Shown in pieces: positions 10,550-42,840 of a stretch of 64,000 nt of DNA. The DNA lies in the IMG/VR virus record IMGVR_UViG_3300021255_004000, positions 64,001-128,000 of that record; one strand, given 5' to 3'. Both the position numbers and the translations under genes were made by a program. Source of the stretch: a virus (Duplodnaviria; Caudoviricetes). Under the pieces are notes generated by a model. It saw only the letters and a program-made list of their open reading frames with translations, did no database searches and was not told the DNA's origin. Positions within the stretch are counted from its first letter, which is position 1. Each line of letters opens with the position of its first letter.

Positions 10550-10571
10550 TTTGAACCTCCGTTACAAAAAT

Positions 10572-10600
10572 AATATAAAAGACTTGCACGGAAAGTTCAA
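10572..10600 (-). promoter_or_regulatory. sigma70-like early promoter (TTGAAC-N17-TATATT)
   Basis: one of ten copies with the same 17-nt spacer: 10572, 18936, 21048, 27799, 31595, 35749, 39570, 42720, 53998, 59896. Confidence 0.8.
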
Positions 10601-11169
10601 ATATTATGCAAAAGTGGATGATTCTTTTTATAGTCGAACTTCAAGCCGTCCTTTACAATTTTGACGATTTCATCGTAGCCTTTTTCATTACCATCAACGA
10701 CAACAAATGGGATTTTATTGGATTCGAGAAACTTGGATGTTTTTCCATCTATCTCTTTAGCTTCGCCTTCAGTTTGATTTCTTCCGTTAGGATTATATGG
10801 CTTCACACGATTGATGACGAAGTTGAAGTTGAAACGATGATACTTTTCAAACTCTTCAAGAGATGCAGCTTTCAACATTGGCTGATCTTCTCTTGCGTAC
10901 AATGCACCAAGAGCAATAGGGCTATCAGTGATAATTACATCGACTTTGCCAAAGCAGCGGCTTATTTTGAAAGACTGCTTTCCTGTAATGTAAAATTGAT
11001 TTTTGAAAACTTCAGAGTTGTTTTCCCAAACTTTATCTTTTGCAAACTCAGAAACATATTCACAGTCAATACCTGCAAGTTTGAGTTTTGCAAAAACATA
11101 AGCGGCGCCTGTAGATTTTCCTGCGCCTGGGCCAGCGAAAAGATTTACAATAATTGTGTTTTTATCCAT
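10597..11169 (-). CDS. P-loop NTPase/kinase (NadR-like AAA family)
   Basis: GPGAGKST; SEFAK; IITDSP; GRNQ. Confidence 0.8.
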   Translation of the reverse strand: MDKNTIIVNLFAGPGAGKSTGAAYVFAKLKLAGIDCEYVSEFAKDKVWENNSEVFKNQFYITGKQSFKISRCFGKVDVIITDSPIALGALYAREDQPMLKAASLEEFEKYHRFNFNFVINRVKPYNPNGRNQTEGEAKEIDGKTSKFLESNKIPFVVVDGNEKGYDEIVKIVKDGLKFDYKKNHPLLHNI

Positions 11170-11212
11170 AGTTGGATATTAACAAAAAAGGTTGCTAAAA
11201 AGCAACCAATTA

Positions 11213-11295
11213 CGGAACCTGCGTGAGTCGAACACGCTCAACCCGAAGGTTGTACAGCTTAGCAGGCTGCTGCATTACCGTCCTGCCCAGATTCC
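11213..11295 (-). tRNA. tRNA-Ser(GCT)
   Basis: cloverleaf, loop CT-GCT-AA, long variable arm, G73. Confidence 0.9.
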
Positions 11296-11304
11296 AAAAT
11301 ACTT

Positions 11305-11379
11305 TGTGAGTGGCAGGAGTCGAACCCGCCTTCATCTGATCCGTAGTCAGAGGCACCAATTCCGATATACCACACTCAC
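11305..11379 (-). tRNA. tRNA-Arg(ACG)
   Basis: TCTGA-CTACGGA-TCAGA, T-loop TTCGACT. Confidence 0.9.
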
Positions 11380-11388
11380 ATAAAATAT

Positions 11389-11504
11389 AGGCCTGTTGTA
11401 AATAGTGCAAGATTTTCAGTCTCGTGTGTCACCGTTTCACCTCATCAGGAAACCCTGATGGTGGGAGTCGAACCCACTTACGATAATAGGAACAACTTTT
11501 GCCT
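11389..11504 (-). ncRNA. carrier-stem RNA copy 1 with circularly permuted tRNA-Phe(GAA) module
   Basis: GGCAAAAGTTGTTCCTATT...TACAACAGGCC ends; internal order is T arm, loop-closed acceptor stem, D arm, CGAGA-CTGAAAA-TCTTG. Confidence 0.75.
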
Positions 11505-11510
11505 TATGAA

Positions 11511-11584
11511 AGCATCATATCGGATTCGAACCGACCCCTACTGCTTGGAGGGCAGTCGTGCTGAGCCGCTAACACTAATGATGC
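11511..11584 (-). tRNA. tRNA-Gly(TCC), C33 variant
   Basis: G1-C72, C2-G71, U73; loop CC-TCC-AA. Confidence 0.85.
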
Positions 11585-11597
11585 ATATTAAAGTTTT

Positions 11598-11671
11598 TGG
11601 GACCTCGAGGATTTGAACCCCGCACCCAGACATTATGAGTGTCGCGCTCTGACCCAATGAGCTAAGATCCC
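11598..11671 (-). tRNA. tRNA-CAT, probably Ile2 (lysidine type)
   Basis: loop CT-CAT-AA; GGG-starting acceptor and A73 resemble Ile2. Confidence 0.8.
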
Positions 11672-11675
11672 ATAA

Positions 11676-12050
11676 AGATTACACAGTACTAAGAATCTGT
11701 ATCGAACGTCGTACTCGGCGGGATCCTTTTCACTGATGAAGTTGAGTGGCTACTGTGTATCACCATTGATATGACCTGCCGTGGGACACGGGCTTCATCA
11801 TCCTTTGAGCAGCAGTTTTGAGTGACGAGTTCAAAACTTTATTGCCTCTAAGTGCCGCAGGTTCTGTCAGTTGTTTGAGAAGGACAGCGTATGTTAGACG
11901 CTTCCTTAATTATTGTACACTTGGTACAACAATCTCTCGTGTTTCCCTTGTCTTTCAAATCAGGCGCAAGTAAGAAACAAAGCGTTATGGAACCACACAT
12001 AATTCACATCATTTGTTGAACTCATAACCCTAGAAATGCCAAAATCCCTA
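11676..12050 (-). ncRNA. unidentified structured RNA(s)
   Basis: no ORF; several helices (TACACAGTA/TACTGTGTA, GTTTTGA/TCAAAAC, ACCTGC/GCAGGT). Confidence 0.45.
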
Positions 12051-12074
12051 TGTTTTTATATTAACATATTCAAG

Positions 12075-12147
12075 TCAGCCACCTGGGATTTGAACCCAGA
12101 ACCTAAGGATTAAGAGTCCCTCGCGCTAACCGTTGCGCCAGTGGCCG
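12075..12147 (-). tRNA. tRNA-Lys(CTT)
   Basis: AGGGA-CTCTTAA-TCCTT. Confidence 0.9.
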
Positions 12148-12152
12148 ATAAG

Positions 12153-12223
12153 TGAGCGATACGGGAGTTGAACCCGTCTCAGCAGATTAAAAGTCTGCGG
12201 CAAAACCGATTTGCTAATCGCCC
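12153..12223 (-). tRNA. tRNA-Lys(TTT)
   Basis: GCAGA-CTTTTAA-TCTGC. Confidence 0.9.
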
Positions 12224-12233
12224 GTAAATTGTT

Positions 12234-12306
12234 TGAGCTTGATGGGAATCGAACCCACGACCCACAGATTAAAAGTCTGTTGCTCTACCTATTGAGCTAC
12301 AAGCCC
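12234..12306 (-). tRNA. tRNA-Lys(TTT)
   Basis: ACAGA-CTTTTAA-TCTGT, canonical D and T arms. Confidence 0.92.
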
Positions 12307-12324
12307 ATAAGATACTCAAACAAT

Positions 12325-12387
12325 TTAACAGGCTTTGTCTAAGGCAGCAATTACTGCTGCCACTTCCGCATTTCCTCTCATAATCAT
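12325..12387 (-). CDS. 20-aa mini-ORF MIMRGNAEVAAVIAALDKAC
   Basis: strong AAGGAG RBS 6 nt before ATG, lying between tRNA-Cys and tRNA-Lys. Confidence 0.5.
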   Translation of the reverse strand: MIMRGNAEVAAVIAALDKAC

Positions 12388-12400
12388 AATTTACTCCTTG

Positions 12401-12473
12401 AGATGAGGATGGGACTCGAACCCACCTGTAACAGTTTTGCAGACTGCTGCCTCACCAATTTGGCTACCTCATC
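12401..12473 (-). tRNA. tRNA-Cys(GCA)
   Basis: GCAGT-CTGCAAA-ACTGT, U73. Confidence 0.9.
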
Positions 12474-12484
12474 ATAATTTTATT

Positions 12485-12556
12485 TACCGCGTGAAGGAGT
12501 TGAACCTTCCTAAGCCGTCTTGTAAGGGCGGTGCACAACCGATGTACCAACGCGGT
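12485..12556 (-). tRNA. tRNA-Val(TAC)
   Basis: loop CT-TAC-AA, A73. Confidence 0.85.
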
Positions 12557-12566
12557 ATAAAGTTGA

Positions 12567-12649
12567 CGGAAGCGACAGGAATCGAACCTGCGACCTTTTT
12601 AGGGGAGACTGTTTTCAAGACAGTTTGATGCGCCAACCAACTCGCTTCC
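12567..12649 (-). tRNA. tRNA-Ser(TGA)
   Basis: ACTGT-CTTGAAA-ACAGT, variable arm, G73. Confidence 0.85.
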
Positions 12650-12657
12650 AAATGTAG

Positions 12658-12730
12658 GGTGCCCATCGGGATTCGAACCCGACCCTGAAGATCCACAATC
12701 TGCCGTGCTAACCGCTAACACTATGGGTAC
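12658..12730 (-). tRNA. tRNA-His(GTG)
   Basis: loop TT-GTG-GA, C73; genomic -1 base is T, not G. Confidence 0.85.
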
Positions 12731-12732
12731 AT

Positions 12733-12805
12733 TGCTGAAGGCAGGATTCGGACCTGCTACATCTGCCTTATGAGGGCAGCGTTCAACCGTATGAACTTCT
12801 TCAAC
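12733..12805 (-). tRNA. tRNA-Met(CAT), elongator-like
   Basis: CTGCC-CTCATAA-GGCAG; T-loop TCCGAAT. Confidence 0.8.
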
Positions 12806-12812
12806 ATAATAG

Positions 12813-12883
12813 CCCAAACTCAGGGATTTGAACCCCGGCTAGATGATCTTCAGTCACCTGTGCTACCGCTACACCAAGTTTGG
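12813..12883 (-). tRNA. tRNA-Phe(GAA), atypical body
   Basis: GGTGA-CTGAAGA-TCATC; G37 and G73. Confidence 0.75.
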
Positions 12884-12888
12884 ATATC

Positions 12889-12962
12889 TGTGGCATCGGG
12901 GATTCGAACCCCGAAAATTTGCGTTCTTAGCGCAACAAGTATGCCAGTTCCATCAATGCCAC
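12889..12962 (-). tRNA. tRNA-Leu(AAG), short variable loop
   Basis: TTGCG-CTAAGAA-CGCAA; Leu-type D arm. Confidence 0.8.
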
Positions 12963-13570
12963 AAAAGTGTATTAGTTCGTTCATCGTATCTAATAAAGAT
13001 ACAATGAAGTCTACTTTTAATGTAGTCCTCTCTGGCTTTATCTTTCATCTTTCCTTTAACAGAATTGTGATAGCCTTTCTTTTCATCATATTCAAAAGCA
13101 ATGTTCAATTCTTTGTCATAGCCATCAAGGTGATATGGTCCAACACAAACTTCTCCGCCATTCATAGCGTGTTGTAAATGCCAACCATATTTTGCGTTCA
13201 GCTCATCAATGAACTTACAAGCATTTTCATTATAATTGCAATAGTTACCAAGATTGTGTCTTTTCCGCATCATCTCAGCAAGTTTTGCTCTTGTTTCAGG
13301 CGTATGAGTGTGGCCTTTCTTAATCTCACGATTAGGATTCAGTCCACAGTATCTCATATGTTGTGTTTTTGACTCCTTATTATTGAAGATTCTTCCGCAA
13401 AAGTCACAAAAACAAGTTTCTTTTCTATGAAGAGACCTTCCCAAGGAGTCAAGTCCTTGTTCTAATCTTTTTTCACAAGTTTTCTTATGTTCAAAATAGT
13501 TTCTTCTACCTTGAACAACACAACCACAATATTCACATTTCCAATTTTGAGCGTTTTTGTATGTTTTCAT
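12953..13570 (-). CDS. free-standing homing endonuclease (Zn fingers + NUMOD3 + PD-(D/E)XK-like domain)
   Basis: CxxC repeats, HTPETRAKL, YHLDGYD...AFEYDE. Confidence 0.75.
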   Translation of the reverse strand: MKTYKNAQNWKCEYCGCVVQGRRNYFEHKKTCEKRLEQGLDSLGRSLHRKETCFCDFCGRIFNNKESKTQHMRYCGLNPNREIKKGHTHTPETRAKLAEMMRKRHNLGNYCNYNENACKFIDELNAKYGWHLQHAMNGGEVCVGPYHLDGYDKELNIAFEYDEKKGYHNSVKGKMKDKAREDYIKSRLHCIFIRYDERTNTLLWH

Positions 13571-13622
13571 ATCAATTAGTAAAGATTGGAAGACACACTT
13601 AACATCTCAAACCCATATTAAC

Positions 13623-13650
13623 AAAAAAGGCAACTCCTAAGAGCCGCCTT
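13623..13650 (-). terminator. attenuator C terminator
   Basis: AAGGCGGCTC-TTAG-GAGTTGCCTT followed by T tract; 5' strand shared with the antiterminator at 13646-13689. Confidence 0.8.
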
Positions 13651-13682
13651 GAAAGATTTGTAAACTGTTTCTGCTTACAACT

Positions 13683-13811
13683 TCAAGGCTCTAATACGAA
13701 ATGTTTTCCAAAGAGAGAACGAAGGACCATCTTCGAACACATACCGCATCCCAATACGAAACTAACAAATGAGGAATGTTTAACTATGTTCGACATCTTT
13801 GAAAAATTCAT
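13683..13811 (-). CDS. leader peptide C (42 aa) MNFSKMSNIVKHSSFVSFVLGCGMCSKMVLRSLFGKHFVLEP
   Basis: AAGGA RBS; stop TGA lies in the antiterminator strand GCCTTGAA. Confidence 0.75.
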   Translation of the reverse strand: MNFSKMSNIVKHSSFVSFVLGCGMCSKMVLRSLFGKHFVLEP

Positions 13812-13893
13812 ATTCGTCAATCCTTAGCTATCAGGTTGCTACCCAAAATGTTTTTTCTTATTGAATAGTTAGTAAACAATTCAATAAAGTAAG

Positions 13894-13966
13894 TGGACCT
13901 ACCGAGCATCGAACTCGGACCTCAGGATTGCAGATCCCGTATGCCAGCCATTAACACCTTAAGCCC
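13894..13966 (-). tRNA. tRNA-Ala(TGC), C33 variant
   Basis: G3.U70; loop TC-TGC-AA. Confidence 0.85.
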
Positions 13967-13973
13967 ATAAAAA

Positions 13974-14090
13974 TCTTCTGTTTATCCGCGAAGGTTGTTA
14001 CCAACTCTTCTTTCCTCTTGGAGGAACTGCTTTGTTTATTCTCCCGCTCCCGCATAACGCGTCGGTGTTGCGTTAGGAATTCACAGAAGA
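13974..14090 (-). ncRNA. unidentified closed-stem RNA
   Basis: ends pair TCTTCTGT/ACAGAAGA; internal hairpins; flanked by tRNAs. Confidence 0.45.
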
Positions 14091-14094
14091 TTAG

Positions 14095-14167
14095 TGGACC
14101 GTAGGGGAGTCGAACCCCTCTTTCCAGCGTGCAAAGCTGGAGTACTAAGCCGATATACGAACAGCCC
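14095..14167 (-). tRNA. tRNA-Ala(TGC)
   Basis: G3.U70; CCAGC-TTTGCAC-GCTGG. Confidence 0.9.
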
Positions 14168-14174
14168 AAAATTA

Positions 14175-14260
14175 AAAGCGGGTTGTAAAAATTTCGCCGC
14201 AATGACGAAATATTGGAGTCGAACCAATAATTTCCGTTTAATAGGAACAACCTTTGCTTT
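14175..14260 (-). ncRNA. carrier-stem RNA copy 2 with T arm + closed acceptor-like helix
   Basis: AGCAAAGGTTGTTCCTATT...TACAACCCGCT; TATTGG-TTCGACT-CCAATA. Confidence 0.7.
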
Positions 14261-14261
14261 A

Positions 14262-14333
14262 TTCCTCTGCTAGGATTCGAACCCAGAACAACTGATCCAG
14301 AGTCAGCAGTGTTACCAATTACACCACAGAGAA
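14262..14333 (-). tRNA. tRNA-Gln(CTG)
   Basis: U1-A72; GCTGA-CTCTGGA-TCAGT. Confidence 0.9.
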
Positions 14334-14334
14334 G

Positions 14335-14406
14335 TCGGACGAGAAGGAGTTGAACCTTCGAAATCTCGGTCCCAGGCCGAGTGACATACCGCTTGCCGAC
14401 CGTCCG
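14335..14406 (-). tRNA. tRNA-Pro(TGG), C33 variant
   Basis: C1-G72, A73; CTCGG-CCTGGGA-CCGAG. Confidence 0.85.
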
Positions 14407-14414
14407 AAAATGAA

Positions 14415-14486
14415 AGCACCTGAAGGGAGTTGAACCCTCGCCTCAGCCTTGGCAAGGCCGCGTACTAGCCGTTATACTACAAGTAC
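14415..14486 (-). tRNA. tRNA-Gly(GCC)
   Basis: loop TT-GCC-AA, U73. Confidence 0.88.
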
Positions 14487-14494
14487 ATAAAATA

Positions 14495-14571
14495 TTGGGG
14501 TGGGTGGAATTGAACCACCGTGTAACCAACTAACCTTTCTGCGGTTTATCAGACCGAGGGTATACACCCCA
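14495..14571 (-). tRNA. rearranged tRNA-Ile(GAT)-like RNA lacking a canonical D arm
   Basis: 7-bp acceptor, CGGT-CTGATAA-ACCG, T arm; D-loop-like AGTTGGT lies 3' of the anticodon arm. Confidence 0.6.
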
Positions 14572-14587
14572 TTGTGTTTCAAGTTTT

Positions 14588-14660
14588 CAGGTGCGGAGAG
14601 ATTCGAACTCCCACCGACGGACTTGGAAACCGTAATGCTAAACCTTTACACCACGCACCT
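14588..14660 (-). tRNA. tRNA-Trp(CCA)
   Basis: A1-U72, G73; loop TT-CCA-AG. Confidence 0.85.
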
Positions 14661-14663
14661 ATA

Positions 14664-14695
14664 AATCATTAAAGGCTCAACTTTTAGTTGAGCCT
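14664..14695 (-). terminator. attenuator B terminator
   Basis: AGGCTCAAC-TAAAA-GTTGAGCCT plus an interrupted T tract; overlaps the antiterminator at 14689-14721. Confidence 0.7.
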
Positions 14696-14718
14696 GTAAA
14701 ATCCAAATTTTACTAGGC

Positions 14719-14853
14719 TCACTTGATCTGCCACTGTCCTGAAATTGGGGCAATAGCTGCAACTGGTGCAAAGCCGGCGAAAGAAACTGGAAGACTAATG
14801 TGGCCGGCAAGTTTTACTGACTTAACTGATTTACAAACCATCATTGCTTTCAT
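14719..14853 (-). CDS. leader peptide B (44 aa) MKAMMVCKSVKSVKLAGHISLPVSFAGFAPVAAIAPISGQWQIK
   Basis: AGGAGAAAGGA RBS; stop TGA begins the antiterminator strand TGAGCCT. Confidence 0.8.
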   Translation of the reverse strand: MKAMMVCKSVKSVKLAGHISLPVSFAGFAPVAAIAPISGQWQIK

Positions 14854-14958
14854 ATTGTCCTTTCTCCTATAATTTTATATTAACAACTTTTCAGAAGTTT
14901 CTGAAAAATTATTTTCAATATTTAGTTAGTACAGTTGCAAAAACTGTAAGAGTTTTAA

Positions 14959-15040
14959 TCGGCCAGGAGAGACTCGAACTCTCAATCCACACGGCGTCCG
15001 ACCTTAATTCGGATGTGTATACCAATTCCACCACTGACCG
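14959..15040 (-). tRNA. tRNA-Leu(TAA)
   Basis: TCCGA-ATTAAGG-TCGGA, variable arm. Confidence 0.85.
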
Positions 15041-15047
15041 AACAAAA

Positions 15048-15230
15048 TTAACTATCCTTTAAGTATGCAACAGTTTTTCCATTTTCAAACATTTCTTGTT
15101 GAAGTTTGGAAATCTTGTTGTAAAGATCTTGGCAAATGCCTTTTGATCTTCCACTTAAATGGAAGCGTGCCATATGTCCTAGCACGAATGCAAGTTCTTG
15201 CAATCTCTCGTTATCGAGTTTGATTGTCAT
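15048..15230 (-). CDS. small hypothetical protein (MTIKLDNERL...)
   Basis: AAGGAG RBS before ATG at 15230. Confidence 0.55.
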   Translation of the reverse strand: MTIKLDNERLQELAFVLGHMARFHLSGRSKGICQDLYNKISKLQQEMFENGKTVAYLKDS

Positions 15231-15275
15231 ATAGACTCCTTGCACCACCAATTTTTTAATGAAATTGGAAACATT

Positions 15276-15342
15276 GGCGAGCTGTAGCAAATATACATTA
15301 ACAGTGTATTGCCTCATCGGCGTAATAGGAACAACTTATGCC
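15276..15342 (-). ncRNA. carrier-stem RNA copy 3 with tRNA-Asn(GTT) anticodon arm
   Basis: GGCATAAGTTGTTCCTATT...TACAGCTCGCC; ATACA-CTGTTAA-TGTAT. Confidence 0.7.
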
Positions 15343-15351
15343 TAACATGTG

Positions 15352-15433
15352 TGGCCGCAGGAAGTTTTGCCATCTCTTCGTCCCCCGACTTACAAGGTCG
15401 GTGCTCTTAGGGCAGTCTGAGCTACATTTGGCC
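15352..15433 (-). tRNA. atypical tRNA-Thr(TGT) with degenerate T arm
   Basis: D stem GCTC/GAGC; CCGAC-CTTGTAA-GTCGG; no TTCRA loop. Confidence 0.55.
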
Positions 15434-15751
15434 TTTGCTGCATCATAAAAAGACAACGCAGCGAAATCCGAAGTTTTTCTTTCAGTTGCCACAACCAAGT
15501 ATTTTTCAACCCACGTCTCATTAAGACAACCTACACTGGAGCTTTTGGTAAAACTTTCTACCCATATTCATCATACGGTAACCATTGTAAAGGCCTTTAT
15601 GCTTGTTCCGCCAGGCTCCCCGCTGACCAAGCTGATGTCTCGGTAATTTTTCATACCAGCCTCACCTTGGGCTCATACTTCCTTTCCCCAAGTACTCTTA
15701 GGTTTTCACGCGACCTAAACTATCCCACGAGTTTGAAAGAGTTTGCTTTCT

Positions 15752-16054
15752 CTAGTAATAACACCACCATTTGATACGACAAGTTTCACTGTCGAAGCAT
15801 TCAGTAAGAATGTTATCAATTTCCTCTTCCGTTGTATCAATATTAACAGATTTCAGTCTGCTTCTGATAAGTCCACGAGAATCTTTTTTCTTCTCGGAAC
15901 GGTCTCCTTTCATCGCACGGCGAGCGTAACGATCACAAGGATTTCCCCAACGGAACCAGAATCTTCGAGCTTCCTGTGTACCGCGTCTTGCGGTATATTC
16001 ACCGTAGCTGAAGTTTGCCTTATAAAAGGCGCTCTCGCAATAATCATTTAACAT
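15752..16054 (-). CDS. hypothetical basic protein
   Basis: AGGAG RBS; 100-aa ORF. Confidence 0.5.
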   Translation of the reverse strand: MLNDYCESAFYKANFSYGEYTARRGTQEARRFWFRWGNPCDRYARRAMKGDRSEKKKDSRGLIRSRLKSVNIDTTEEEIDNILTECFDSETCRIKWWCYY

Positions 16055-16251
16055 CTAGTGTATCTCCTACACTATCCGTAAGTCATACGCGATCCTCCTA
16101 TTATAGCATCATCGTTCACAGGATCGAACTGCAACCGTACAGACCTTTAGAGCCTATCCGTTTTACCCCACACAGGGCGATGTTGCTTATGGTTGAACGA
16201 GATGGCAACAACATTACTTGTACACCAACGTCATCTGCTATAAAACTAAGA

Positions 16252-16333
16252 TGGGCCAAAGGAGAGTCGAACTCCTAATCCTTTCGGCGACTGCTTTTGA
16301 GGCAGTTGCGTATACCAGTTCCGCCATTAGCCC
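16252..16333 (-). tRNA. tRNA-Leu(CAA)
   Basis: ACTGC-CTCAAAA-GCAGT, variable arm. Confidence 0.9.
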
Positions 16334-16339
16334 AAATGA

Positions 16340-16412
16340 TTGCGGGAGGTGGACTCGAACCACCGACCTTCGGGTTATGGGCCCGATAAGCTGCCAACTG
16401 CTCTATCCCGCG
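16340..16412 (-). tRNA. initiator tRNA-fMet(CAT), C33 variant
   Basis: C1xA72 mismatch, three G-C pairs in the anticodon stem, loop CC-CAT-AA. Confidence 0.9.
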
Positions 16413-16427
16413 ATGTAACATGTGTTT

Positions 16428-16503
16428 TGACGCTGACAGGACTCGAACCTGCGACACCGAGCTTAGAAGGCTCGTGTTCTTATTCCAGCTGAACTACAGC
16501 GCC
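16428..16503 (-). tRNA. tRNA-Arg(TCT)
   Basis: CGAGC-CTTCTAA-GCTCG. Confidence 0.9.
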
Positions 16504-16685
16504 ATATTGAAAGTACTTTATACGTCGGACCAGTCCGTTCAGCTTTCGCCTAGGGAGTTTCGAGGCTCCCACCTACGCATATCAACTTTCTGTGTGCTTT
16601 TCGGGCTTCTTCTACTAAGCACTTAAACTTTCAGTTCTGCTAGAAACCAAAGTTCTTGACGTTCTCTCTAGCAATGAGAACCGTA

Positions 16686-16760
16686 TAGCTGTTGCAGGAG
16701 TCGAACCTGCTATCGTAAAGGATATGAGCCTCACATATTGAACCGTTCTACCCAACAGCG
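16686..16760 (-). tRNA. tRNA-Met(CAT), unpaired 1:72
   Basis: loop CT-CAT-AT; C1xU72. Confidence 0.7.
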
Positions 16761-16768
16761 ACGTACAA

Positions 16769-16890
16769 AAAGACGAGTTGTATTATTCGTGCTCTAACCG
16801 CTGAGCTATCCGCCCACGAACGAGCGGAGTTGGATTCGAACCAACGACCCCGTGCTTAAAAGGCAACAAATAGGAACAACTTATGTCTTT
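16769..16890 (-). ncRNA. carrier-stem RNA copy 4 with circularly permuted tRNA-Lys(TTT)
   Basis: GACATAAGTTGTTCCTATT...TACAACTCGTC; order is anticodon loop CTTTTAA, T arm, loop-closed acceptor TCCGCTC/GGGCGGA, D arm. Confidence 0.8.
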
Positions 16891-16893
16891 TAG

Positions 16894-16966
16894 CGGTGTA
16901 TGCGGGAATCGAACCCGCCATCTCCTGCGTGACAGGCAGGCGAAATAGCCGATATTCAAATACACC
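16894..16966 (-). tRNA. tRNA-Asp(GTC)
   Basis: CCTGC-CTGTCAC-GCAGG, G73. Confidence 0.9.
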
Positions 16967-17175
16967 AAATAAACAAACCACCTTCCAAACGGAACGCCCG
17001 ATACTTGATCTTAATGTCCGCACTTATCCAAGAGTTTCATTTCGCGCGAGAAACTCTCGGGGGTTAGGGAGCTACAGGTGCCTAGGCTTACTACGATTAA
17101 GCCAACAAATGCGAGCTCGTCTCACAAAGGTTTGTACTTTTTGCCAACTTCTGTCTAGAATGAAGTTGAAAGTAG

Positions 17176-17263
17176 TGGGCCGAGAGGGAGTCGAACCCCC
17201 GATGTTTGCCGTAAAGGTGACGGATTTACAGTCCGCTGACTTCGCCACTGGTCACACCGACCC
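17176..17263 (-). tRNA. tRNA-Tyr(GTA)
   Basis: GCGGA-CTGTAAA-TCCGT, long variable arm. Confidence 0.9.
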
Positions 17264-17329
17264 ATAAAATTGATGGCCGTGCTCATCACACATTTACAAC
17301 ATCGTTTCGAGCAATGTTACCATCAAGTA

Positions 17330-17402
17330 AGCTACTTGTAGGACTTGAACCCACAACATCCTGATTACAGGTCAGGCGCTCTACCATTGGAGCTAAAGTA
17401 GC
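17330..17402 (-). tRNA. tRNA-Thr(TGT), C33 variant
   Basis: CCTGA-CCTGTAA-TCAGG. Confidence 0.88.
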
Positions 17403-17558
17403 ACAATAAAAGATAAATTACATTTTTTCTTTCCATACATCTTTCATTCTAATTTGTCCGCGGTCACTGAACGAAGAAGATGGTTGTATTAGATGTTCTA
17501 TAACTTTTCGGGGCCTTAAGCCCGTATTGAGTGTTTCAACATCAGTCTCTTATCTTTA

Positions 17559-17631
17559 AGCCGCCTGAGGGATTTGAACCCACAACATCCGCATTACAGG
17601 TGCGGCGCTCTACCATTGGAGCTAAGGAGGC
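17559..17631 (-). tRNA. tRNA-Thr(TGT), C33 variant
   Basis: CCGCA-CCTGTAA-TGCGG. Confidence 0.88.
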
Positions 17632-17634
17632 ATA

Positions 17635-17706
17635 CAGTTCCGAAAGGAGTCGAACCTTCGTTCTCTGGATGAAAACCAGATGGCCTAGCCGTTAGCCGAC
17701 GGAACC
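17635..17706 (-). tRNA. tRNA-Glu(TTC)
   Basis: TCTGG-TTTTCAT-CCAGA. Confidence 0.88.
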
Positions 17707-17787
17707 AAAAACTGTGAACTACTTCTAAGACTGGACGGAAGTATAGCAGCTCGTTCAAAAGATATATTGACTTTCAAACTTTTGTCT

Positions 17788-17872
17788 CGTATCAGGCAGG
17801 GCTCGAACCTGCGATGGGCTTTCGCTCGGCAGATTAACAGTCTGCTGTCTTCGACCACTCGACCACTGATAC
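17788..17872 (-). tRNA. tRNA-Asn(GTT) with long variable arm
   Basis: GCAGA-CTGTTAA-TCTGC, G73. Confidence 0.85.
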
Positions 17873-17879
17873 ATATTTA

Positions 17880-18431
17880 TTATGTTAAAAAGATTTTTAC
17901 TTCTTCTATAAAGATTTTAGGATTATTGAAAATATCTTTCCAAGATTTTCTCAATTCTTTCCATCCTTCTTCATTCAGAAGTTTATCTTTCTGAACATCT
18001 CTTTCTTTTTGCTCTTGAAATCTTTCGTGTTGTTCACCATCAATTTCAACGCAAAGTTTTTTGTCAGGCCAAGCAAAGTCCAAAGAAAACCTATGAAAAG
18101 GAACTTCTCTGTAATAATCTTTATCAATTTCTTGACCAAATTCATTTCTCATCATTGTAATAAACCACTCCTCAGGATATGAAGGTTTATTATTCCAACG
18201 ACAATCTCCAATGTTATGAGCTCGACCTTCAGCGTGAGCTTTTTTCATCGAAGCAGAAATCTTTTGTCTAACATCATCCGACATTGTATGTCCGCAATGA
18301 TCCTTCAACTTCTGTCTTGTTTCTTCTGACAAAACAGGTTTTTCTTTTCCAAGAGCTTTAGCCTTAGTATATTGATTTGTACCGTGGCCTTTTCTTGCGT
18401 GCATTGCATCGTACCATTTTTGACTTTTCAT
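17880..18431 (-). CDS. free-standing homing endonuclease (NUMOD3 + DUF559/Vsr-like domain)
   Basis: SEETRQKL/SDDVRQKIS repeats; FSLDFAW..LCVEIDGEQH...RD..KD. Confidence 0.8.
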   Translation of the reverse strand: MKSQKWYDAMHARKGHGTNQYTKAKALGKEKPVLSEETRQKLKDHCGHTMSDDVRQKISASMKKAHAEGRAHNIGDCRWNNKPSYPEEWFITMMRNEFGQEIDKDYYREVPFHRFSLDFAWPDKKLCVEIDGEQHERFQEQKERDVQKDKLLNEEGWKELRKSWKDIFNNPKIFIEEVKIFLT

Positions 18432-18519
18432 ATCAATTAGTACGGTCCTCCGCTCTACATGTGTCCCTATCGTCGGAACCTATTGTCAACATCTTATCGT
18501 CGGTCCCTATTGTCGGTAG

Positions 18520-18593
18520 CGGGATATGCGAGCATCGAACTCGCGACCTCTAGCGTGACAGGCTAGCGTGGTAGCCAACTCCACCAATACCCC
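18520..18593 (-). tRNA. tRNA-Asp(GTC)
   Basis: CTAGC-CTGTCAC-GCTAG. Confidence 0.88.
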
Positions 18594-18807
18594 AAAATTG
18601 TAGGTATAAGAAACCTTTTGCAAGGAAAGGAATTACCCGTATGCCTTTTACCAGCCAACAACTTGTTCAGTAGTTCCATTTCTGTTATCTGACCAATAGT
18701 GTTTCTACTGGCTCTGACAAGTTATCAACCAAGGATTCGAACCTTCCACCGAACGATACCACGAGGTGGCAGCAACCAAGCTGTTATTTTATTCCGTTTA
18801 ACGTTCT

Positions 18808-18880
18808 TAGATCTTGCGGGGATCGAACCCACTCCTCCACCTTGAAAGGGTGGCGACTCAACCTTTTTGTCCTAAGATCC
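18808..18880 (-). tRNA. tRNA-Glu(TTC)
   Basis: CCACC-CTTTCAA-GGTGG. Confidence 0.88.
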
Positions 18881-18999
18881 ATATTTGAAGTTTCCTTCTT
18901 TTGTTGTAAACCTTTTGTATCGGTTTTACAGAAATAATATAAAAGAAGTTTTTTCAAAGTTCAAAAATTTTTATTTTTTTGCAATTTTTGTTATAAAAC

Positions 19000-19028
19000 A
19001 AAAAAGGCAAACCTTCATCGGTTTGCCT
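19000..19028 (-). terminator. attenuator A terminator
   Basis: AGGCAAACC-GATGAA-GGTTTGCCT followed by T tract; overlaps the antiterminator at 19023-19059. Confidence 0.8.
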
Positions 19029-19050
19029 CAGGGAAACATTTCTCAGTTCT

Positions 19051-19173
19051 CTAAGGCAACCTTGTATCTTCATTATAATCGTATTCATCTGTAGTGATAG
19101 CAGTTCTAACATCATTATTCAATAATGATCTTGTTGTGAGAACTTCTGCTGTCAATGAATACAATGAAGTCAT
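19051..19173 (-). CDS. leader peptide A (40 aa) MTSLYSLTAEVLTTRSLLNNDVRTAITTDEYDYNEDTRLP
   Basis: AAGGAAGG RBS; stop TAG lies in the antiterminator strand TTGCCTTAG. Confidence 0.78.
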   Translation of the reverse strand: MTSLYSLTAEVLTTRSLLNNDVRTAITTDEYDYNEDTRLP

Positions 19174-19267
19174 TTTTAATAGCCCTTCCTTAATATATTT
19201 CAATTAGTACAACCCTTAAAAATGTAAGAGTTGTAATTTGTTCCTCGTATATTTATATTAACAGATT

Positions 19268-19867
19268 TTAGTCTTCTGCTGTAGGAATTTCAATTCCAAA
19301 CAGTTTTGATAACTTATCTTTCCAATTAAGGAAATCATCGTTATGGCCGCCATCTGCATAATAAGTTACACCGTCATAAATCTTATCATAATTTGATAAG
19401 AAAGCTTTACAGAACTCTTCGTTCTCAGGATCGCCATCGCTGGCAGTATCATAAAGCTCGTCAATAAGTGTATCAAGCTTCTCAATGCAGTTTGCTGCTG
19501 CTTCATAGTTTGTCCAAACTCTTGAGAGAATTTGGAATAAACTTATCAACTTCATAAACTTATGCTTCAAAGCATCTGTTTTGATTACATCATACATATC
19601 AGAAAGTTCGCCGCCTACAATAACTGGGACGCCATTCAATCTTTCAAATGCGTGACATAATTCGTGTGCAACATATTTAGGCAAGTCCTCTTTGGAAACT
19701 TTTTTCCAAACAGAAATACTCTTTTCTGAAATGTTGTACTTTGCTTTCATTCCTGTGTAGTCAAAGTCGACAACATTTATAGAAACACTTGGACACGGAA
19801 TACCTGCATCCTCAAGCTTATCAAGCAAATTGTCTAAACACGCCTGTGCATCTTCTTGTTTAATCAT
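19268..19867 (-). CDS. HExxH metallopeptidase-like protein
   Basis: VAHELCHAFE. Confidence 0.65.
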   Translation of the reverse strand: MIKQEDAQACLDNLLDKLEDAGIPCPSVSINVVDFDYTGMKAKYNISEKSISVWKKVSKEDLPKYVAHELCHAFERLNGVPVIVGGELSDMYDVIKTDALKHKFMKLISLFQILSRVWTNYEAAANCIEKLDTLIDELYDTASDGDPENEEFCKAFLSNYDKIYDGVTYYADGGHNDDFLNWKDKLSKLFGIEIPTAED

Positions 19868-20035
19868 AAACGGTACTCCTAATATTTAGTTATAGGAGAA
19901 AGAGTTCTCGCCGGTTTTAATTTCTCAAACTACAGCCCCGCTACCTGCATTCGATTTTTGCAAGCCATACGAGTAGCATCACTGCTGCGAGGTTGATGGG
20001 ACTTTCACCCATAGTGACGTTTAACGAACTCCTAA

Positions 20036-20124
20036 TTCGGAAGGCGGGATTCGAACCTGCACGACGCTGATATGCGTCACCAGAATCAAAGTCTGGGGAG
20101 ATACCAATTACTCTTTACTTCCGA
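20036..20124 (-). tRNA. tRNA-Gln(TTG) with long variable arm
   Basis: CCAGA-CTTTGAT-TCTGG; GACGC-ATATCA-GCGTC arm. Confidence 0.7.
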
Positions 20125-20130
20125 GTAAAA

Positions 20131-20700
20131 TAGTTTTCTCACTCTTGTTTGCAACGCGACGCAAGATTCCAATAGGTGGACATATCCGATATTCCTATTA
20201 TACGGAAGGCCCTTAAGCGCATCTACTGCCGCGAGAAAACTATAGGTGAACCAAGGACTTGAACCTTGCCGTTACTCCAGCCTTGCGAGCTTCACGGATC
20301 CAACAGTGTCCACCATCATTATAAGTGCAGTCGGGAATTGAACCCGCTCTCAGCTGGCGTGATCCGCGTGGGACGAAGCCGTGCCTTTTTCCTTCATCGC
20401 ACTTAACAAGCCTTACGGATTGCTCCTGCTTGTAATGGAGTCTTAGAGGTTTGACTGCCAACCTTTAGAACATAGAGGATTCGAACCTCAGTTTCTGAGC
20501 ATACTACACTCAGCGTTCTAGACCCTGCCCTACTTTGCTGTGCACTGCTTTTTCGAGCTTTCGAACTAATGTTCTCCTTTGACGGTATCAACTTCATCCT
20601 GCGTCGTCATATACAGGCCTTTACCATCCGGTGCTTCCAGCGGTTGAGTATAACTCCTCATATTTCCCGTTCTCTGTGTAGCCATCTACGTTGAAGTTGT
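20131..20700 (-). ncRNA. run of tRNA-like and closed-stem RNAs (20131-20242, 20244-20314, 20324-20403, 20467-20574)
   Basis: three units have an acceptor stem and a TTCRA T arm but non-canonical D/anticodon regions; 20131-20242 is a closed stem. Confidence 0.5.
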
Positions 20701-20706
20701 CAAATA

Positions 20707-20779
20707 TAGTTCCTACGGGGCTTGAACCCATTTTTCGAGCTTGAGAGGCTCGCGAATTAGCCAGTTATTCGAAGGAACC
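20707..20779 (-). tRNA. tRNA-Glu(CTC)
   Basis: CGAGC-CTCTCAA-GCTCG. Confidence 0.85.
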
Positions 20780-20784
20780 AAAAA

Positions 20785-21015
20785 TTACATCTCAGGAATA
20801 AGCGTGCCATCTTTTAACCAAGCTTTTGGAGTAAAGTTTGGCATAGGCTGTAATGTTTCAAAAGACCACCAAGCATTATCATTTTTATCCCAAAGACCAT
20901 AACCAATGCCTTTTGAACCATCACTGTTAAAACCTACAAGAAGAACGACACCTTGATCTTTCCCTGCTTCCAAGTCAAAATTCCAAGTTGCTTCAACTGT
21001 TACTGTCTTTGCCAT
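20785..21015 (-). CDS. hypothetical protein
   Basis: AGGAGG RBS; downstream of early promoter 21048-21076. Confidence 0.65.
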   Translation of the reverse strand: MAKTVTVEATWNFDLEAGKDQGVVLLVGFNSDGSKGIGYGLWDKNDNAWWSFETLQPMPNFTPKAWLKDGTLIPEM

Positions 21016-21149
21016 ACTCGCCTCCTTGTTTGCGTTTTGACAATAATAATATAAAAGAATGTTTGAAAAAGTTCAAAAATTCTTAAATATTTTTCAAAAA
21101 AAAATACCTGCAGCAACAGCCACAGGTATTATATTAACACTTTAGGCTA

Positions 21150-22337
21150 TTACTGTTGAACCTGCTGTTGAGCTTGCTCCAAAGCTAAGTTTGGATTTTC
21201 CTGAGCAACCTGAATTGCCTGAGCAACAACATCAGGATTGATATTTGCACCAAGCTGATTTCCATATCTTTTATAGAAATTAAGAGCTGCACCAACATTC
21301 TTACAGCGAATTGCTGCTGCTGCGAGAATCATATTCTCGACTCCATTATGATTTTGGAAGAACTGTGGAAGATCATTTCGAAGTCCCTGCTCGCCCTGTG
21401 CATTTGCCTGACCTAAGAACTTGGAAATATAATTTACCAATTCTTTAGCTCCTGCATCAGTACCATCAAAATTGTTAAGTTGCTTTACGATTGCATTTGC
21501 AGTCATATTAGCAGAAGCTTCGTTCATTTGAATAAGACTTTCAAAGAAGTTGGTTTTCTCATCTTTAGCAGGTTTAGCAGCTTCAAGGATTTCATTAAAC
21601 AAACTTTCTTTGAAGCCAAGCTTCTGAAGAATTGAAGATTTTGCTTGTGGCTGCGCAGCAGTTGGCATTACAGTTCCAGTGTTGTTATCAACAACCTGAG
21701 CATTCTTGTTCATTGACATATCAGGCTTTTCAGGAGACCAATCCTGCATTGCTGCTTTTTCTTTTGCTGGAGCAGCAGCGTAAGCTTTCTGAAACTTGTC
21801 AACACGAGCAGCTGCGGCAGGAGACATTGAGTTCTTTGCTGCAACTGGGTTAGCCCAAGCAGTTTTATCAGGTCCCATAGGAACGCCTACATAAACACCT
21901 GTTTTATCAACTTCTGCCTGTCCTCTTCCGTTAGGCCCTGGTGTTATATCACGAATGCCTTTGTTAGCAAGATCACCAGCAAGAGCGCGGCCTGATGCTT
22001 CGCCGTTTGCATACTGCATTGTTCCGCCAATCTGTGCTTCACGAATGTTTACTGACCAGTTCTTTTCGATTTTTGGAAGTATTCCTCTTACCCATCTCAT
22101 CAAACTGTTAAACTGTTCAGGATTTTCTGTTGGATGTTCTTCATCAATCTTTCCTGCGATGTATTCAACAATTCCTATATCTGGGTCATTTACGCCTGCG
22201 TCAACATCTTCGCAATATCTGCCATACCAAAAGTCAACATCAGCTTCAAGACCATCATAAGAATCAAAAAAGTTTCCTTCGCGGAAAGTATCATATGCAT
22301 ATCCTCTGTTAAGGAGGTCCTCAATCATCTTTTCCAT
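21150..22337 (-). CDS. hypothetical protein (possible virion protein)
   Basis: 395-aa ORF preceded by the TACTAAT motif. Confidence 0.7.
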   Translation of the reverse strand: MEKMIEDLLNRGYAYDTFREGNFFDSYDGLEADVDFWYGRYCEDVDAGVNDPDIGIVEYIAGKIDEEHPTENPEQFNSLMRWVRGILPKIEKNWSVNIREAQIGGTMQYANGEASGRALAGDLANKGIRDITPGPNGRGQAEVDKTGVYVGVPMGPDKTAWANPVAAKNSMSPAAAARVDKFQKAYAAAPAKEKAAMQDWSPEKPDMSMNKNAQVVDNNTGTVMPTAAQPQAKSSILQKLGFKESLFNEILEAAKPAKDEKTNFFESLIQMNEASANMTANAIVKQLNNFDGTDAGAKELVNYISKFLGQANAQGEQGLRNDLPQFFQNHNGVENMILAAAAIRCKNVGAALNFYKRYGNQLGANINPDVVAQAIQVAQENPNLALEQAQQQVQQ

Positions 22338-26276: not shown

Positions 26277-27512
26277 TCACTCCTCAGTACCATCAGTCAT
26301 CTGCATACCCATAAGGTGCAAAGTATCACGGTACAGTGTTCTTGAGTTTTTACCCTTTTCAATGAAAGCATCAAAAAGTTCATCAGCTTTCTTTCCATAA
26401 AGTTGTTTGAACAAAGCAGCATCTTCTGGAAAATCTTCATTCACTGAAGTGTAGAACTCTTTCTTATCTGCATACTTTGCTGCGATTACTGTGTTGACAT
26501 ATTCAACTTTTTCTTCAAGCCATTTACGGTACAGCTGAACATTGTGAGAGATTTCCTCAACACGAGCTTTTACTTTTGGATCAGCAGCGCAAAGGTCATC
26601 AACTTCATTCATACAGTAATATTTGAACAAGCGGTTGTCACCGAAGTCTTCGCCTCTTGACTCAAACTTTACGCGAATGTAATCATCGATTTTGACTTTT
26701 ACACGGTTGAAATATTTATCACATACAACAACGCCTTCACCGTTATCTTTTACATTCCAACCTGCAAGTACATCAAGCATTTCCTTTGCGGATTTGAAGT
26801 TGTACATCTTTGGAGTTTCAAAAGGAAAATGGAATCTTTCTTTTGCTTCAGTGAAAGTTATTTCATCGCCACTTGGCATACGGAAACCAATAAGCCAAAG
26901 TTTTGCATCTTTTACCAAGTCAGTGTGAATTCTGTTCCAAGGTGACTCCAGTTCAAACATTGCTGTTGAACCTTCAGGCATTCTTTTTGCCCATTCACAA
27001 TCAGAGAAAAGGAAACCATCTGAGAAGAAAGCTGATGAAACGTCATTCTTTAATGCCCGCAAAAGAACATCAGACATATTGTTCAATCTTGGCAAGCCTG
27101 GGACATAATCAACAGGAGCGCCTTTCTCATTCTCAGTAATCACACGACCGTTTGACATCCAATAAACATTGCCGTGCCATTTGAACGCTTTGAAAATCCA
27201 GCCGTCACGCTTGTGGGAAACCCAAGCAGAATCCCAGTCAATGTCAGCAGCAACGCCTTCATCTTTGTAATTCCAAAACTTTGTGAATGGAGCACAGATG
27301 ATTTCACCTGTAGTTTTGTCAATTACAGTACCACGACACTGACACATTATATCAAAGATTTCCTTGTCATCAGGCATATCCATAAGATTGTACATAAGTA
27401 CAACCCAGTTGCGGCCTTCAACAGGATAAATGGATTTCATATTTGGTCTGAGGATTTCTTCCCAATTTGGATTTGATTTTACGAAGTTTTCAAGTTTCTC
27501 AAAGTGTTTCAT
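26277..27512 (-). CDS. T4 Rnl1-like RNA ligase
   Basis: CRG, PFTKFWN, KRDG (motif I), FEL, EGVVV, KVK. Confidence 0.85.
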   Translation of the reverse strand: MKHFEKLENFVKSNPNWEEILRPNMKSIYPVEGRNWVVLMYNLMDMPDDKEIFDIMCQCRGTVIDKTTGEIICAPFTKFWNYKDEGVAADIDWDSAWVSHKRDGWIFKAFKWHGNVYWMSNGRVITENEKGAPVDYVPGLPRLNNMSDVLLRALKNDVSSAFFSDGFLFSDCEWAKRMPEGSTAMFELESPWNRIHTDLVKDAKLWLIGFRMPSGDEITFTEAKERFHFPFETPKMYNFKSAKEMLDVLAGWNVKDNGEGVVVCDKYFNRVKVKIDDYIRVKFESRGEDFGDNRLFKYYCMNEVDDLCAADPKVKARVEEISHNVQLYRKWLEEKVEYVNTVIAAKYADKKEFYTSVNEDFPEDAALFKQLYGKKADELFDAFIEKGKNSRTLYRDTLHLMGMQMTDGTEE

Positions 27513-39743: not shown

Positions 39744-39948
39744 ATAACATGCGCGGAAATTGCTTATTCGCAAGTATTCCATTTCCGCAAAAAGTTGAAA
39801 ACTGTAGGGTCTTACTAAAACTTGCGACCTAATCTGCTTTCAACTAGGGATACACCGTTTGTCCTCGTCGTTATCACGAGAGCACGAGGAATCCTCCACC
39901 ATCAATTTTTGAAAGAAATTGAAAACTTTTGCATTGTAAAACGCATAG

Positions 39949-40023
39949 AACTTCAAGTAGGATTTGAACCCACATCACCGCCAATCACCCGGCAGTATGC
40001 TTACCAAGTTACACCATTGAAGT
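39949..40023 (-). tRNA. tRNA-like RNA with non-canonical 8-nt anticodon loop (GGGTGATT)
   Basis: intact acceptor, D and T arms. Confidence 0.6.
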
Positions 40024-40736: not shown

Positions 40737-41114
40737 TGGACCTGGGGAGTTTCGAACTCCCGTCTTGCTCTGACGCCCATTAACACTCTTTACAGGCTTA
40801 AAACCGAATTGACGGTAGGGACGGTCAAAACCCATATTTACTTTTGGTTTTCGATTGAACTGAGCAAGCAACCCAACTCTTGTTCAACTTATCAGATGGG
40901 CGATACGAACATTCCACTATCTGAGTCGTGAAAGTCGCAGTTGGTCCTCAAAGGGTCCAACTAGGTGTTGCCTTAGGCAGCGCGAGCGAAAGCTGCGCGT
41001 GAACCACGAGCAACAACTGAACGTTTAGTTGCAGTTATTCTTTTCCGTATTAAGGTCGGCACCTTTACCTGATGTTAAAGAACTATTCAGCCAATCGATT
41101 CCAAAGTCAGGCCC
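40737..41114 (-). ncRNA. ssrA: tmRNA; tag (A)ATKRSVVARGSRAAFARAA*
   Basis: GGGCCTGA 5' end, G3.U70 Ala acceptor, T arm, ATAACT-GCA resume context, tag frame 41032-40973 ending AA-stop. Confidence 0.9.
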
Positions 41115-42408: not shown

Positions 42409-42840
42409 TTTGCAAGAACTCCTGCCAAGATTGCTTCATTAGAGCGAATTACTCTCTGTGAGCCTTTCTCTGCAACAAAAACTTTTCCTACTTTGTTGTA
42501 AGAAACTTCCCAGCCGTTGATGTTATGAACAATCTTCTGATCTGTGTCGATCTGATCTTTACGGCCTTTGCTGAGAATTGAGACAATTCTTGCTTTATTC
42601 ATAGTATGCTCCTTGTTTGAAAAGTGGCGAAGGTTTCCCGCTCCTTGGGTCAACCTACAAACCCCGAATCCCCTGAGGAACTTCCTCAGTTCAACGCTGG
42701 TTTAGCACCAGACAATAATAATATAAAAGAAAAGCGGACAAAGTTCAATTTGTCCGCATATTTTTTCAAAAATTTTACCGTTCGGTAATAATTTTCTTAA
42801 AAAGTATAATTTTTCAGTTATATTTTACCGCTCGGTAAAA

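Follow-up and report, generated by a model that had tools for sequence, protein, structure and literature searches.

A candidate leader-peptide attenuator preceding a tRNA gene block in an uncultured giant rumen phage

Leader-peptide attenuators are known from enterobacteria, where they include trpL, hisL, leuL, thrL and pheL as well as the multivalent leaders of ilvGMEDA and thr. The phage locus described here resembles these systems in combining a short, codon-enriched open reading frame (ORF) with an intrinsic terminator and a mutually exclusive antiterminator, in an arrangement in which a ribosome at the stop codon would favour termination. It differs from them in that the genes under putative control are phage tRNA genes and not genes for biosynthetic enzymes, and in that the phage leaders each cover 7-10 amino acids and do not carry runs of one codon. 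There are also three RNA segments instead of four, with no region 1 and with the stop codon inside the antiterminator arm, and the phage modules are chained in one array, the first of them (module A) with an extra promoter.

T-box riboswitches of Firmicutes likewise couple the status of tRNA to read-through of a terminator via a choice between terminator and antiterminator. These elements bind uncharged tRNA directly, through a specifier codon and the T-box sequence, and do not need translation; they control synthetase and amino-acid genes, not tRNA genes. The T-box covariance model gave no match in an Rfam E-value scan of positions 10500-21500, which returned only tRNAs and weak matches. In pyrBI/pyrE attenuation, as proposed here, the position of the ribosome relative to the terminator hairpin decides termination. 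However, the leader ORF of that system extends through the terminator, and termination is prevented by close coupling, whereas the phage ORF stops 21 nt before the terminator 5' arm. Full-text searches of the literature turned up no description of phage tRNA genes under leader-peptide attenuation, and such control, if real, would carry this classical mechanism over from amino-acid genes to tRNA genes. Why phages carry many tRNA genes, and how their timing and dose are set, is debated; suggested reasons include compensation for codon usage, evasion of host tRNA nucleases and surviving a shut-off of the host.

The window that we analysed is a 64,000-nt stretch of DNA from an uncultured giant rumen phage with related contigs from cattle and sheep gut metagenomes. 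A 77-kb relative was estimated by CheckV to be 26% complete. Nearly all genes in the window are on the minus strand. They include an array of ~37 tRNA genes running from 20780 to 11212, followed by a gene for a CCA-adding enzyme (9161-10549); genes for a T4-type RNA ligase (26277-27512) and a tmRNA (40737-41114; tag peptide ATKRSVVARGSRAAFARAA, ARAGORN) are found elsewhere in the window. ARAGORN also called a tRNA-like gene with a four-base anticodon (gtga) at 39948-40023, and another call with a four-base anticodon (tttc) lies in the array of the relatives (L139:2336-2419). A DNA search with positions 18800-20000 against 50,697 phage records gave no match. The upstream neighbour of the leader studied here (leader A) is a gene for a 199-aa protein, and neither this protein nor the leader matched a Pfam family. 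The features of module A and the tRNA block behind it are as follows.

19254..19263, minus strand: TGTTAATATA motif, immediately downstream of the 199-aa gene's stop codon
19204..19232, minus strand: 5'-UTR hairpin ACAACTCTT/AAGGGTTGT, with a CTTAC...TACTAA motif
19183..19191, minus strand: Shine-Dalgarno-like AAGGAAGGG, at a distance of 9 nt from the ATG; all relatives retain AAGGA(A)
19051..19173, minus strand: putative leader ORF A, 40 codons plus TAG stop, start codon ATG
19075..19086, minus strand: EYDY motif (GAA TAC GAT TAT, codons 30-33), from alignments
19051..19061, minus strand: candidate antiterminator 5' arm GGUUGCCUUAG, including the stop codon
19020..19031, minus strand: candidate antiterminator 3' arm CUGAGGCAAACC, overlapping the whole terminator 5' arm
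18995..19029, minus strand: intrinsic terminator, stem GAGGCAAACC/GGTTTGCCTT, loop GATGAA, tail TTTTGTTTT
18934..18964, minus strand: promoter motif TTGAAC-N17-TATATT, between terminator A and the first tRNA (tRNA-Glu)
14958..18881, minus strand: tRNA block A, with Glu-TTC x2, Asp-GTC x2, Asn-GTT, Thr-TGT x2, Tyr-GTA, Met-CAT x2, Arg-TCT, Leu-CAA and Leu-TAA
17880-18431: DUF559 endonuclease gene inside block A

Two tRNA genes were missed by default ARAGORN: a third CAT-anticodon tRNA in block A (16685-16761, 37.3 bits) and an Ile-GAT tRNA with an odd D arm (14495-14571, Rfam 32.9 bits). An ARAGORN call of Arg-CCT at 14204-14280 overlaps a tRNA-Gln and is without Rfam support. Block A also contains a weak Rfam match to YrlA (Y RNA-like) at 16788-16852, with 32 bits against a gathering score of 69.

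A first-pass annotation had proposed that the ORF at 19173-19051 is the leader of an attenuator sensing the tRNAs of the downstream block. Re-translation of this ORF returned the peptide given there, MTSLYSLTAEVLTTRSLLNNDVRTAITTDEYDYNEDTRLP followed by the stop, and confirmed that K, G, H, C, F, Q and W are all absent from it. As in known attenuators, this is a short ORF with a start codon and a ribosome-binding site, and it is open in relatives. Residues 27-39, which had been put forward as the sensor stretch, do consist only of T, D, E, Y, N, R and L, and tRNAs for all seven lie within 18881-14958. A match down to the level of codons had also been claimed. The codons are as described: the Leu codons are TTG, TTG, CTC, TTA, TTG and TTG (TTR in 5/6), the Arg codons are AGA, AGA and AGG, Thr is encoded by ACA/ACT only and Glu by GAA only. 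The weight of this observation is modest, since 41% of the Leu codons in this phage's own genes are TTR and 43% of the Arg codons are AGR, giving p ~0.05 for Leu and ~0.08 for Arg in leader A.

Upstream of the ORF, the TGTTAATATA motif is presumed to be a promoter of extended -10 type from which the leader transcript starts. With one mismatch allowed it occurs in 24 copies in the window against 6.2 expected, 22/24 of them on the minus strand, and copies also precede leader B and the leader A of relatives. The stem of the 5'-UTR hairpin shows a compensatory change in L149-L153 (ACCACTCTT/AAGAGTGGT). The window contains exactly three instances of CTTAC-N(8-24)-TACTAA, each of them preceding one of the leaders A, B and C, the latter two belonging to sister modules further along the array:

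14674..14950, minus strand: module B, with CTTAC..TACTAA, TGTTAATATA, ORF 14853-14719, antiterminator UGAGCCU:AGGCUCA and terminator 14694-14674
13627..13893, minus strand: module C, with the same motif, ORF 13811-13683, antiterminator GCCUUGA:UCAAGGC and terminator 13650-13627

All three leaders have a Shine-Dalgarno sequence and a stop codon in or beside the helix arm that pairs with the terminator 5' arm. Terminator B lies 12 nt from tRNA-Trp without an intervening promoter. In L142, terminator C is followed directly by tRNA-Leu, with ~68 nt from the end of the leader C ORF to this tRNA. A loose scan of IMG/VR for CTCTTAC..TACTAANTNAA gave at least 118 matches in unrelated contigs, apparently by chance, and was discarded, as was the one locus added by a terminator pattern scan (L008), an unrelated chance match.

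Between leader A and the tRNA genes, the terminator hairpin at 19029-19004 has a 10-bp stem and a 6-nt loop with a dG of -15.9 kcal/mol, and is kept in all relatives. This places an intrinsic terminator between the leader and the genes it is proposed to regulate. The first-pass annotation had further suggested that the stop-containing TTGCCTTAG could sequester the terminator 5' arm, and this pairing was found: TTGCCTTAG (19059-19051) and CTGAGGCAA (19031-19023) form 9 bp, one of them G.U, and the helix extends, with one bulge, to GGUUGCCUUAG:CUGAGGCAAACC. When the nascent RNA was folded up to the terminator loop, the predicted energy was -17.3 kcal/mol and 9/10 bases of the terminator 5' arm were paired upstream. 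Folds with the upstream part shuffled reached -9.9 +/- 2.6 kcal/mol, and the real nascent fold was better than 99% of shuffles. In the nascent fold the antiterminator with the stop codon in its 5' strand is thus mutually exclusive with the terminator, as attenuation requires. The stop region was paired with the terminator 5' arm in the predicted nascent RNA of 6/6 modules, with dG of -17 to -23 kcal/mol and p <= 0.02 against shuffles.

The antiterminator helices were read directly and folded for each sequence, as MAFFT misaligns the arms by one column between lineages. Helix A exists in three versions related by paired changes, GCCUUAG:CUGAGGC, GCCUAGU:ACUAGGC and GCCUAGGU:ACUUAGGC, and these changes include paired one-base insertions. 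As controls, we folded other minus-strand terminators, and 7/9 were without comparable upstream pairing (z -1.0 to +0.9). A promoter overlaps the control terminator at 42757 (z -2.3), whose 5' arm does not take part in the pairing. At the control terminator at 21130, 9/12 bases of the 5' arm are paired upstream (z -2.5). This terminator (21103-21150) follows a 395-aa gene, its 5' arm pairs with the end of the coding region, and a promoter motif TTGAAC-N17-TATATT then follows; the pairing could be chance, or could reflect translation-sensitive termination at an ordinary gene.

We found no segment able to pair with the antiterminator 5' arm, that is, no equivalent of region 1. Absence of translation would therefore default the switch to read-through. 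In contigs from rumen RNA libraries of four studies, covering 13500-19400, terminator B was bridged in four runs and terminator A in one. These contigs are assemblies from related strains that may include DNA, and 3' ends and transcript levels are not readable from them.

If the leaders report on the tRNA blocks behind them, their codons should match those blocks. We counted the leader codons that are readable, under standard wobble rules, by tRNAs between each leader's own terminator and the next module, both for the window and for the diverged G001 lineage.

Window leader A: 29/39 codons read by its own block
Window leader B: 19/43 read by its own block, and 43/43 by blocks B+C, that is, everything downstream
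Window leader C: 34/41 read by its own block
G001 leader A: 30/38 read by its own block, and 36/38 at the amino-acid level
G001 leader C: 40/45 read by its own block

Leader A is thus enriched in codons that report on the genes behind it (29/39 against a background of 38%). When tRNAs were randomly re-partitioned among blocks, the 82/123 observed in the window compared with 44 +/- 8 and the 70/83 observed in G001 with 47 +/- 6, and 0/100,000 partitions reached the observed value in either case. Swapping the leaders among the blocks gave at most 57. As blocks and peptides are each chemically coherent, amino acids were also permuted within physicochemical classes only, which gave p = 4e-4 for the window, 7e-3 for G001 and 2e-4 for the two combined. 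The leaders were also compared with windows of the same length from the phage's own genes. The value of window leader A was reached by 1/9,253 of these, that of window leader C by 0/9,179, that of window leader B against B+C by 0/9,105 and that of G001 leader C by 0/9,031; the codon-level value of G001 leader A was reached by 2%. Lys and Arg illustrate the match. All Lys residues (16/16) are in leaders with Lys tRNAs in downstream blocks, and 6/7 Arg residues are in the A leaders, the seventh being a CGT in leader C, whose block holds Arg-ACG. A mismatch was seen for Ile in G001, where the four Ile codons are ATT/ATC and the Ile tRNA of the block has the anticodon TAT.

To follow these modules in evolution, we compared the only two diverged lineages available, the window type (L140-L142, L149-L153) and the G001 type (L001-L005, L145-L148, L154). 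Window-type relatives have the same three leaders with small changes. Across the G001 type, the neighbouring 199-aa protein is 41-85% identical to that of the window; the terminator and promoter are kept, and leader A is MMLSRVYEQEQITRNNPNTTIWTNIINPREYDYDSGQPS. The two A leaders have only EYDY, 4 of ~40 residues, in common, in a comparison where the neighbouring protein is 85% identical, and EYDY is the sole motif that they share. A homologue of leader C in G001 is ~30% identical and has its own terminator, which ends 12 nt before tRNA-Leu. No module B-like leader was found before tRNA-Trp in G001, where there is an 87-aa gene without a terminator. Block A of G001 additionally holds Pro, Ser, Trp, Gln, Ile, Ala and Arg-ACG tRNAs, and its leader A contains P x3, S x3, W, Q x3, I x4 and one CGC codon. 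Relative to the window, this leader has gained P, Q, W, I and CGC and has lost most Leu, and the Leu tRNAs TAA and CAA have moved to block C. This joint change of leader and block is suggestive of the proposed match, although it is not significant alone.

Twenty-nine natural variants of leader A were available, with peptide conservation of 83-100% within clades. Indels in leader A are in frame (-3 in L141, +3 in L142, +6 in L153), as is one of -6 in leader B. In L154, an insertion of +1, three codons short of the ORF's end, leads to another TAG within the same helix arm. Fixed replacements between sublineages of the window type are S3L and D29N in leader A, P22S, V23A and Q42C in leader B, and M28K, R31H and E41K in leader C. 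All of these (8/8) are to residues of the matching set, for which a rough estimate of chance is 0.005, and substitutions out of the set were seen in single contigs only. The correspondence has exceptions among relatives: L002 and L003 have the same leader with a block that is without Pro and Tyr tRNAs, and L142 is without Arg-TCT, with a 102-aa gene separating the promoter from the first tRNA. Endonuclease genes of DUF559 or HNH type occupy differing sites in the tRNA blocks of different strains (L142:11704-12384 and 13496-14305; L149:1916-2476), and such insertions probably explain the gain or loss of single tRNAs (Arg-TCT, Pro, Tyr).

All leader variants examined retain the TAG stop at the DNA level. 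Database proteins of 52 aa had raised the possibility of a TAG-to-CAG polymorphism. This was rejected, as the DNA has TAG and the genes had been called with TAG read as Gln. The entries P0004-P0009, P0013-P0016, P0018, P0019, P0021 and P0022 (52-58 aa) carry a false extension of 12 residues into the terminator loop. There was no sign of TAG recoding in the window, where TAG terminates 7/70 long ORFs and coverage rises little if it is treated as a sense codon. Separately, a conserved element of ~170 nt with a multi-stem fold lies between the 199-aa gene and leader A in relatives (L001:6622-6790, also L005 and L143-L148) and is missing from the window at ~19245. Two-sided changes keep 9/43 of its predicted pairs, mostly in the diverged L144 copy, and it matched no Rfam family.

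The main revision to the first-pass annotation concerns a feature absent from it. Forty bases past terminator A lies a TTGAAC-N17-TATATT motif. The window has ten copies of this 31-nt motif where 0.01 would be expected, and all ten are on the minus strand (the other nine at 10570, 21046, 27797, 31593, 35747, 39568, 42718, 53996 and 59894). Its consensus is TTGAACTTT-N10-CTTTTATATTAT, and the copy after terminator A is kept in nearly all relatives. Two further copies follow a terminator beside ordinary genes (21130 then 21076, and 39635 then 39598). We interpret the motif as a conserved phage promoter. A second motif, (T/A)GTTAATATA, occurs 24 times (22/24 on the minus strand), in many cases just past the T run of a terminator or ahead of a start codon, and the two motifs probably represent two promoter classes. 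With a promoter of its own, block A would not be under the sole control of attenuator A, which would gate only read-through from upstream. The attenuator reading thus stands as far as the leader, the terminator and the antiterminator are concerned, all of which pass the computational tests, and fails as an account of the whole control of the block. We speculate that if the TGTTAATATA promoter and the TTGAAC-type promoter act at different times, the attenuator could control the block at one stage only.

This promoter also lends itself to a simpler account, in which module A is an ordinary operon end: ORF A encodes the small protein of a last gene, the terminator is a plain one, the block is transcribed from the following promoter only, and the match and the helix have no regulatory meaning. 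Much about module A would fit, as its terminator-then-promoter junction is like those at 21130/21076 and 39635/39598, the terminator at 21130 likewise has upstream pairing, the peptide is conserved within clades like a real protein, some relatives lack the matching tRNAs, and a protein gene follows the promoter in L142. We nevertheless consider this account unlikely. The composition match survives three null models in two lineages, and modules B and C are without a promoter between terminator and tRNAs. The peptide keeps 4 of ~40 residues between lineages where the neighbouring protein keeps 85%; the leader has no Pfam match, and frameshifts alter its C-terminal residues while leaving the stop within the helix arm.

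Two other readings keep the hairpins functional and dispense with the sensing of specific tRNAs. The leaders might sense general translation status, such as the supply of ribosomes, a global starvation or a shut-off of the host by toxins or nucleases; any slowing of ribosomes would then relieve termination, and codon content would be secondary. The lack of region 1 would suit such a sensor, as the absence of ribosomes alone would give read-through, and so would the multivalent leaders, with 7-10 amino-acid types each, and the translation-repair genes of the phage (tmRNA, RNA ligase, CCA-adding enzyme). Block-specific composition is not something that a general sensor would require, yet there are sharp differences between the three leaders and each one suits the block behind it; the use of Lys versus Arg tracks the blocks, and fixed substitutions remain in the matching sets, so that we hold this reading to be improbable. 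Even less credence is given to the idea that the hairpins are processing or stability elements of tRNA precursors, with untranslated ORFs and an alternative helix that serves folding or nuclease recognition. The modules do lie inside an array that needs processing, further conserved hairpins such as the CTTAC..TACTAA stem flank them, and modules A and B are bridged by RNA-library contigs. We regard it as very improbable in view of the conserved start codon, Shine-Dalgarno sequence and frame, with every indel in the ORFs in frame, and of a composition match that is a property of the reading frame.

Taken together, we favour, with some confidence, the reading that ORF A is the translated leader peptide of a transcription attenuator, one of three that divide the tRNA array. 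Anatomy, conservation, the codon/tRNA match and maintenance of frame support it in silico. That the ORF is translated, that switching depends on the ribosome, that the promoters are active and that regulation runs in the proposed direction is what we infer from these sequence features. According to this attenuator model, a transcript carrying the 40-codon ORF would start upstream, probably at TGTTAATATA. When the leader is read fast, the lead ribosome would reach the TAG and cover GGUUGCCUUAG, the terminator at 19029-19004 would fold and transcription would stop. An early stall, caused by slow decoding of Thr, Leu (TTR), Asp, Asn, Glu, Tyr or Arg (AGR) codons, would leave GGUUGCCUUAG to pair with CUGAGGCAAACC; with the antiterminator formed there would be no terminator, and RNA polymerase would continue into tRNA block A. 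Slow reading of the matching codons would thus probably let extra transcription into the tRNAs of block A, as a supplement to promoter-driven expression of the block, and the outcome would be negative feedback between decoding capacity and tRNA synthesis.

The model also limits which codons could act as sensors. A ribosome has a footprint such that a stall at codons 34-40 would mask the antiterminator 5' arm, which promotes termination. Sensing in the proposed direction would therefore be confined to codons up to about Tyr33, with EYDY at the last usable position. By this footprint argument, the first part of the sensor stretch proposed at residues 27-39 remains usable, and its last 6-7 codons would be too near the helix.

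For annotators, these modules would suggest a rule for finding mini-ORFs that gene callers miss or miscall; many existing entries are 52-aa artefacts of reading TAG as Gln. On a broader scale, we see about an even chance that giant phages run their tRNA arrays as chained feedback cassettes, each behind a mini-ORF that test-translates the codons of its own tRNAs and lets transcription continue only if this translation is slow. Such chained cassettes would form a homeostat of tRNA supply, possibly tuned to the depletion or cleavage of host tRNAs during infection. If this is true, the tRNA supply of these phages would be a regulated, demand-driven system.
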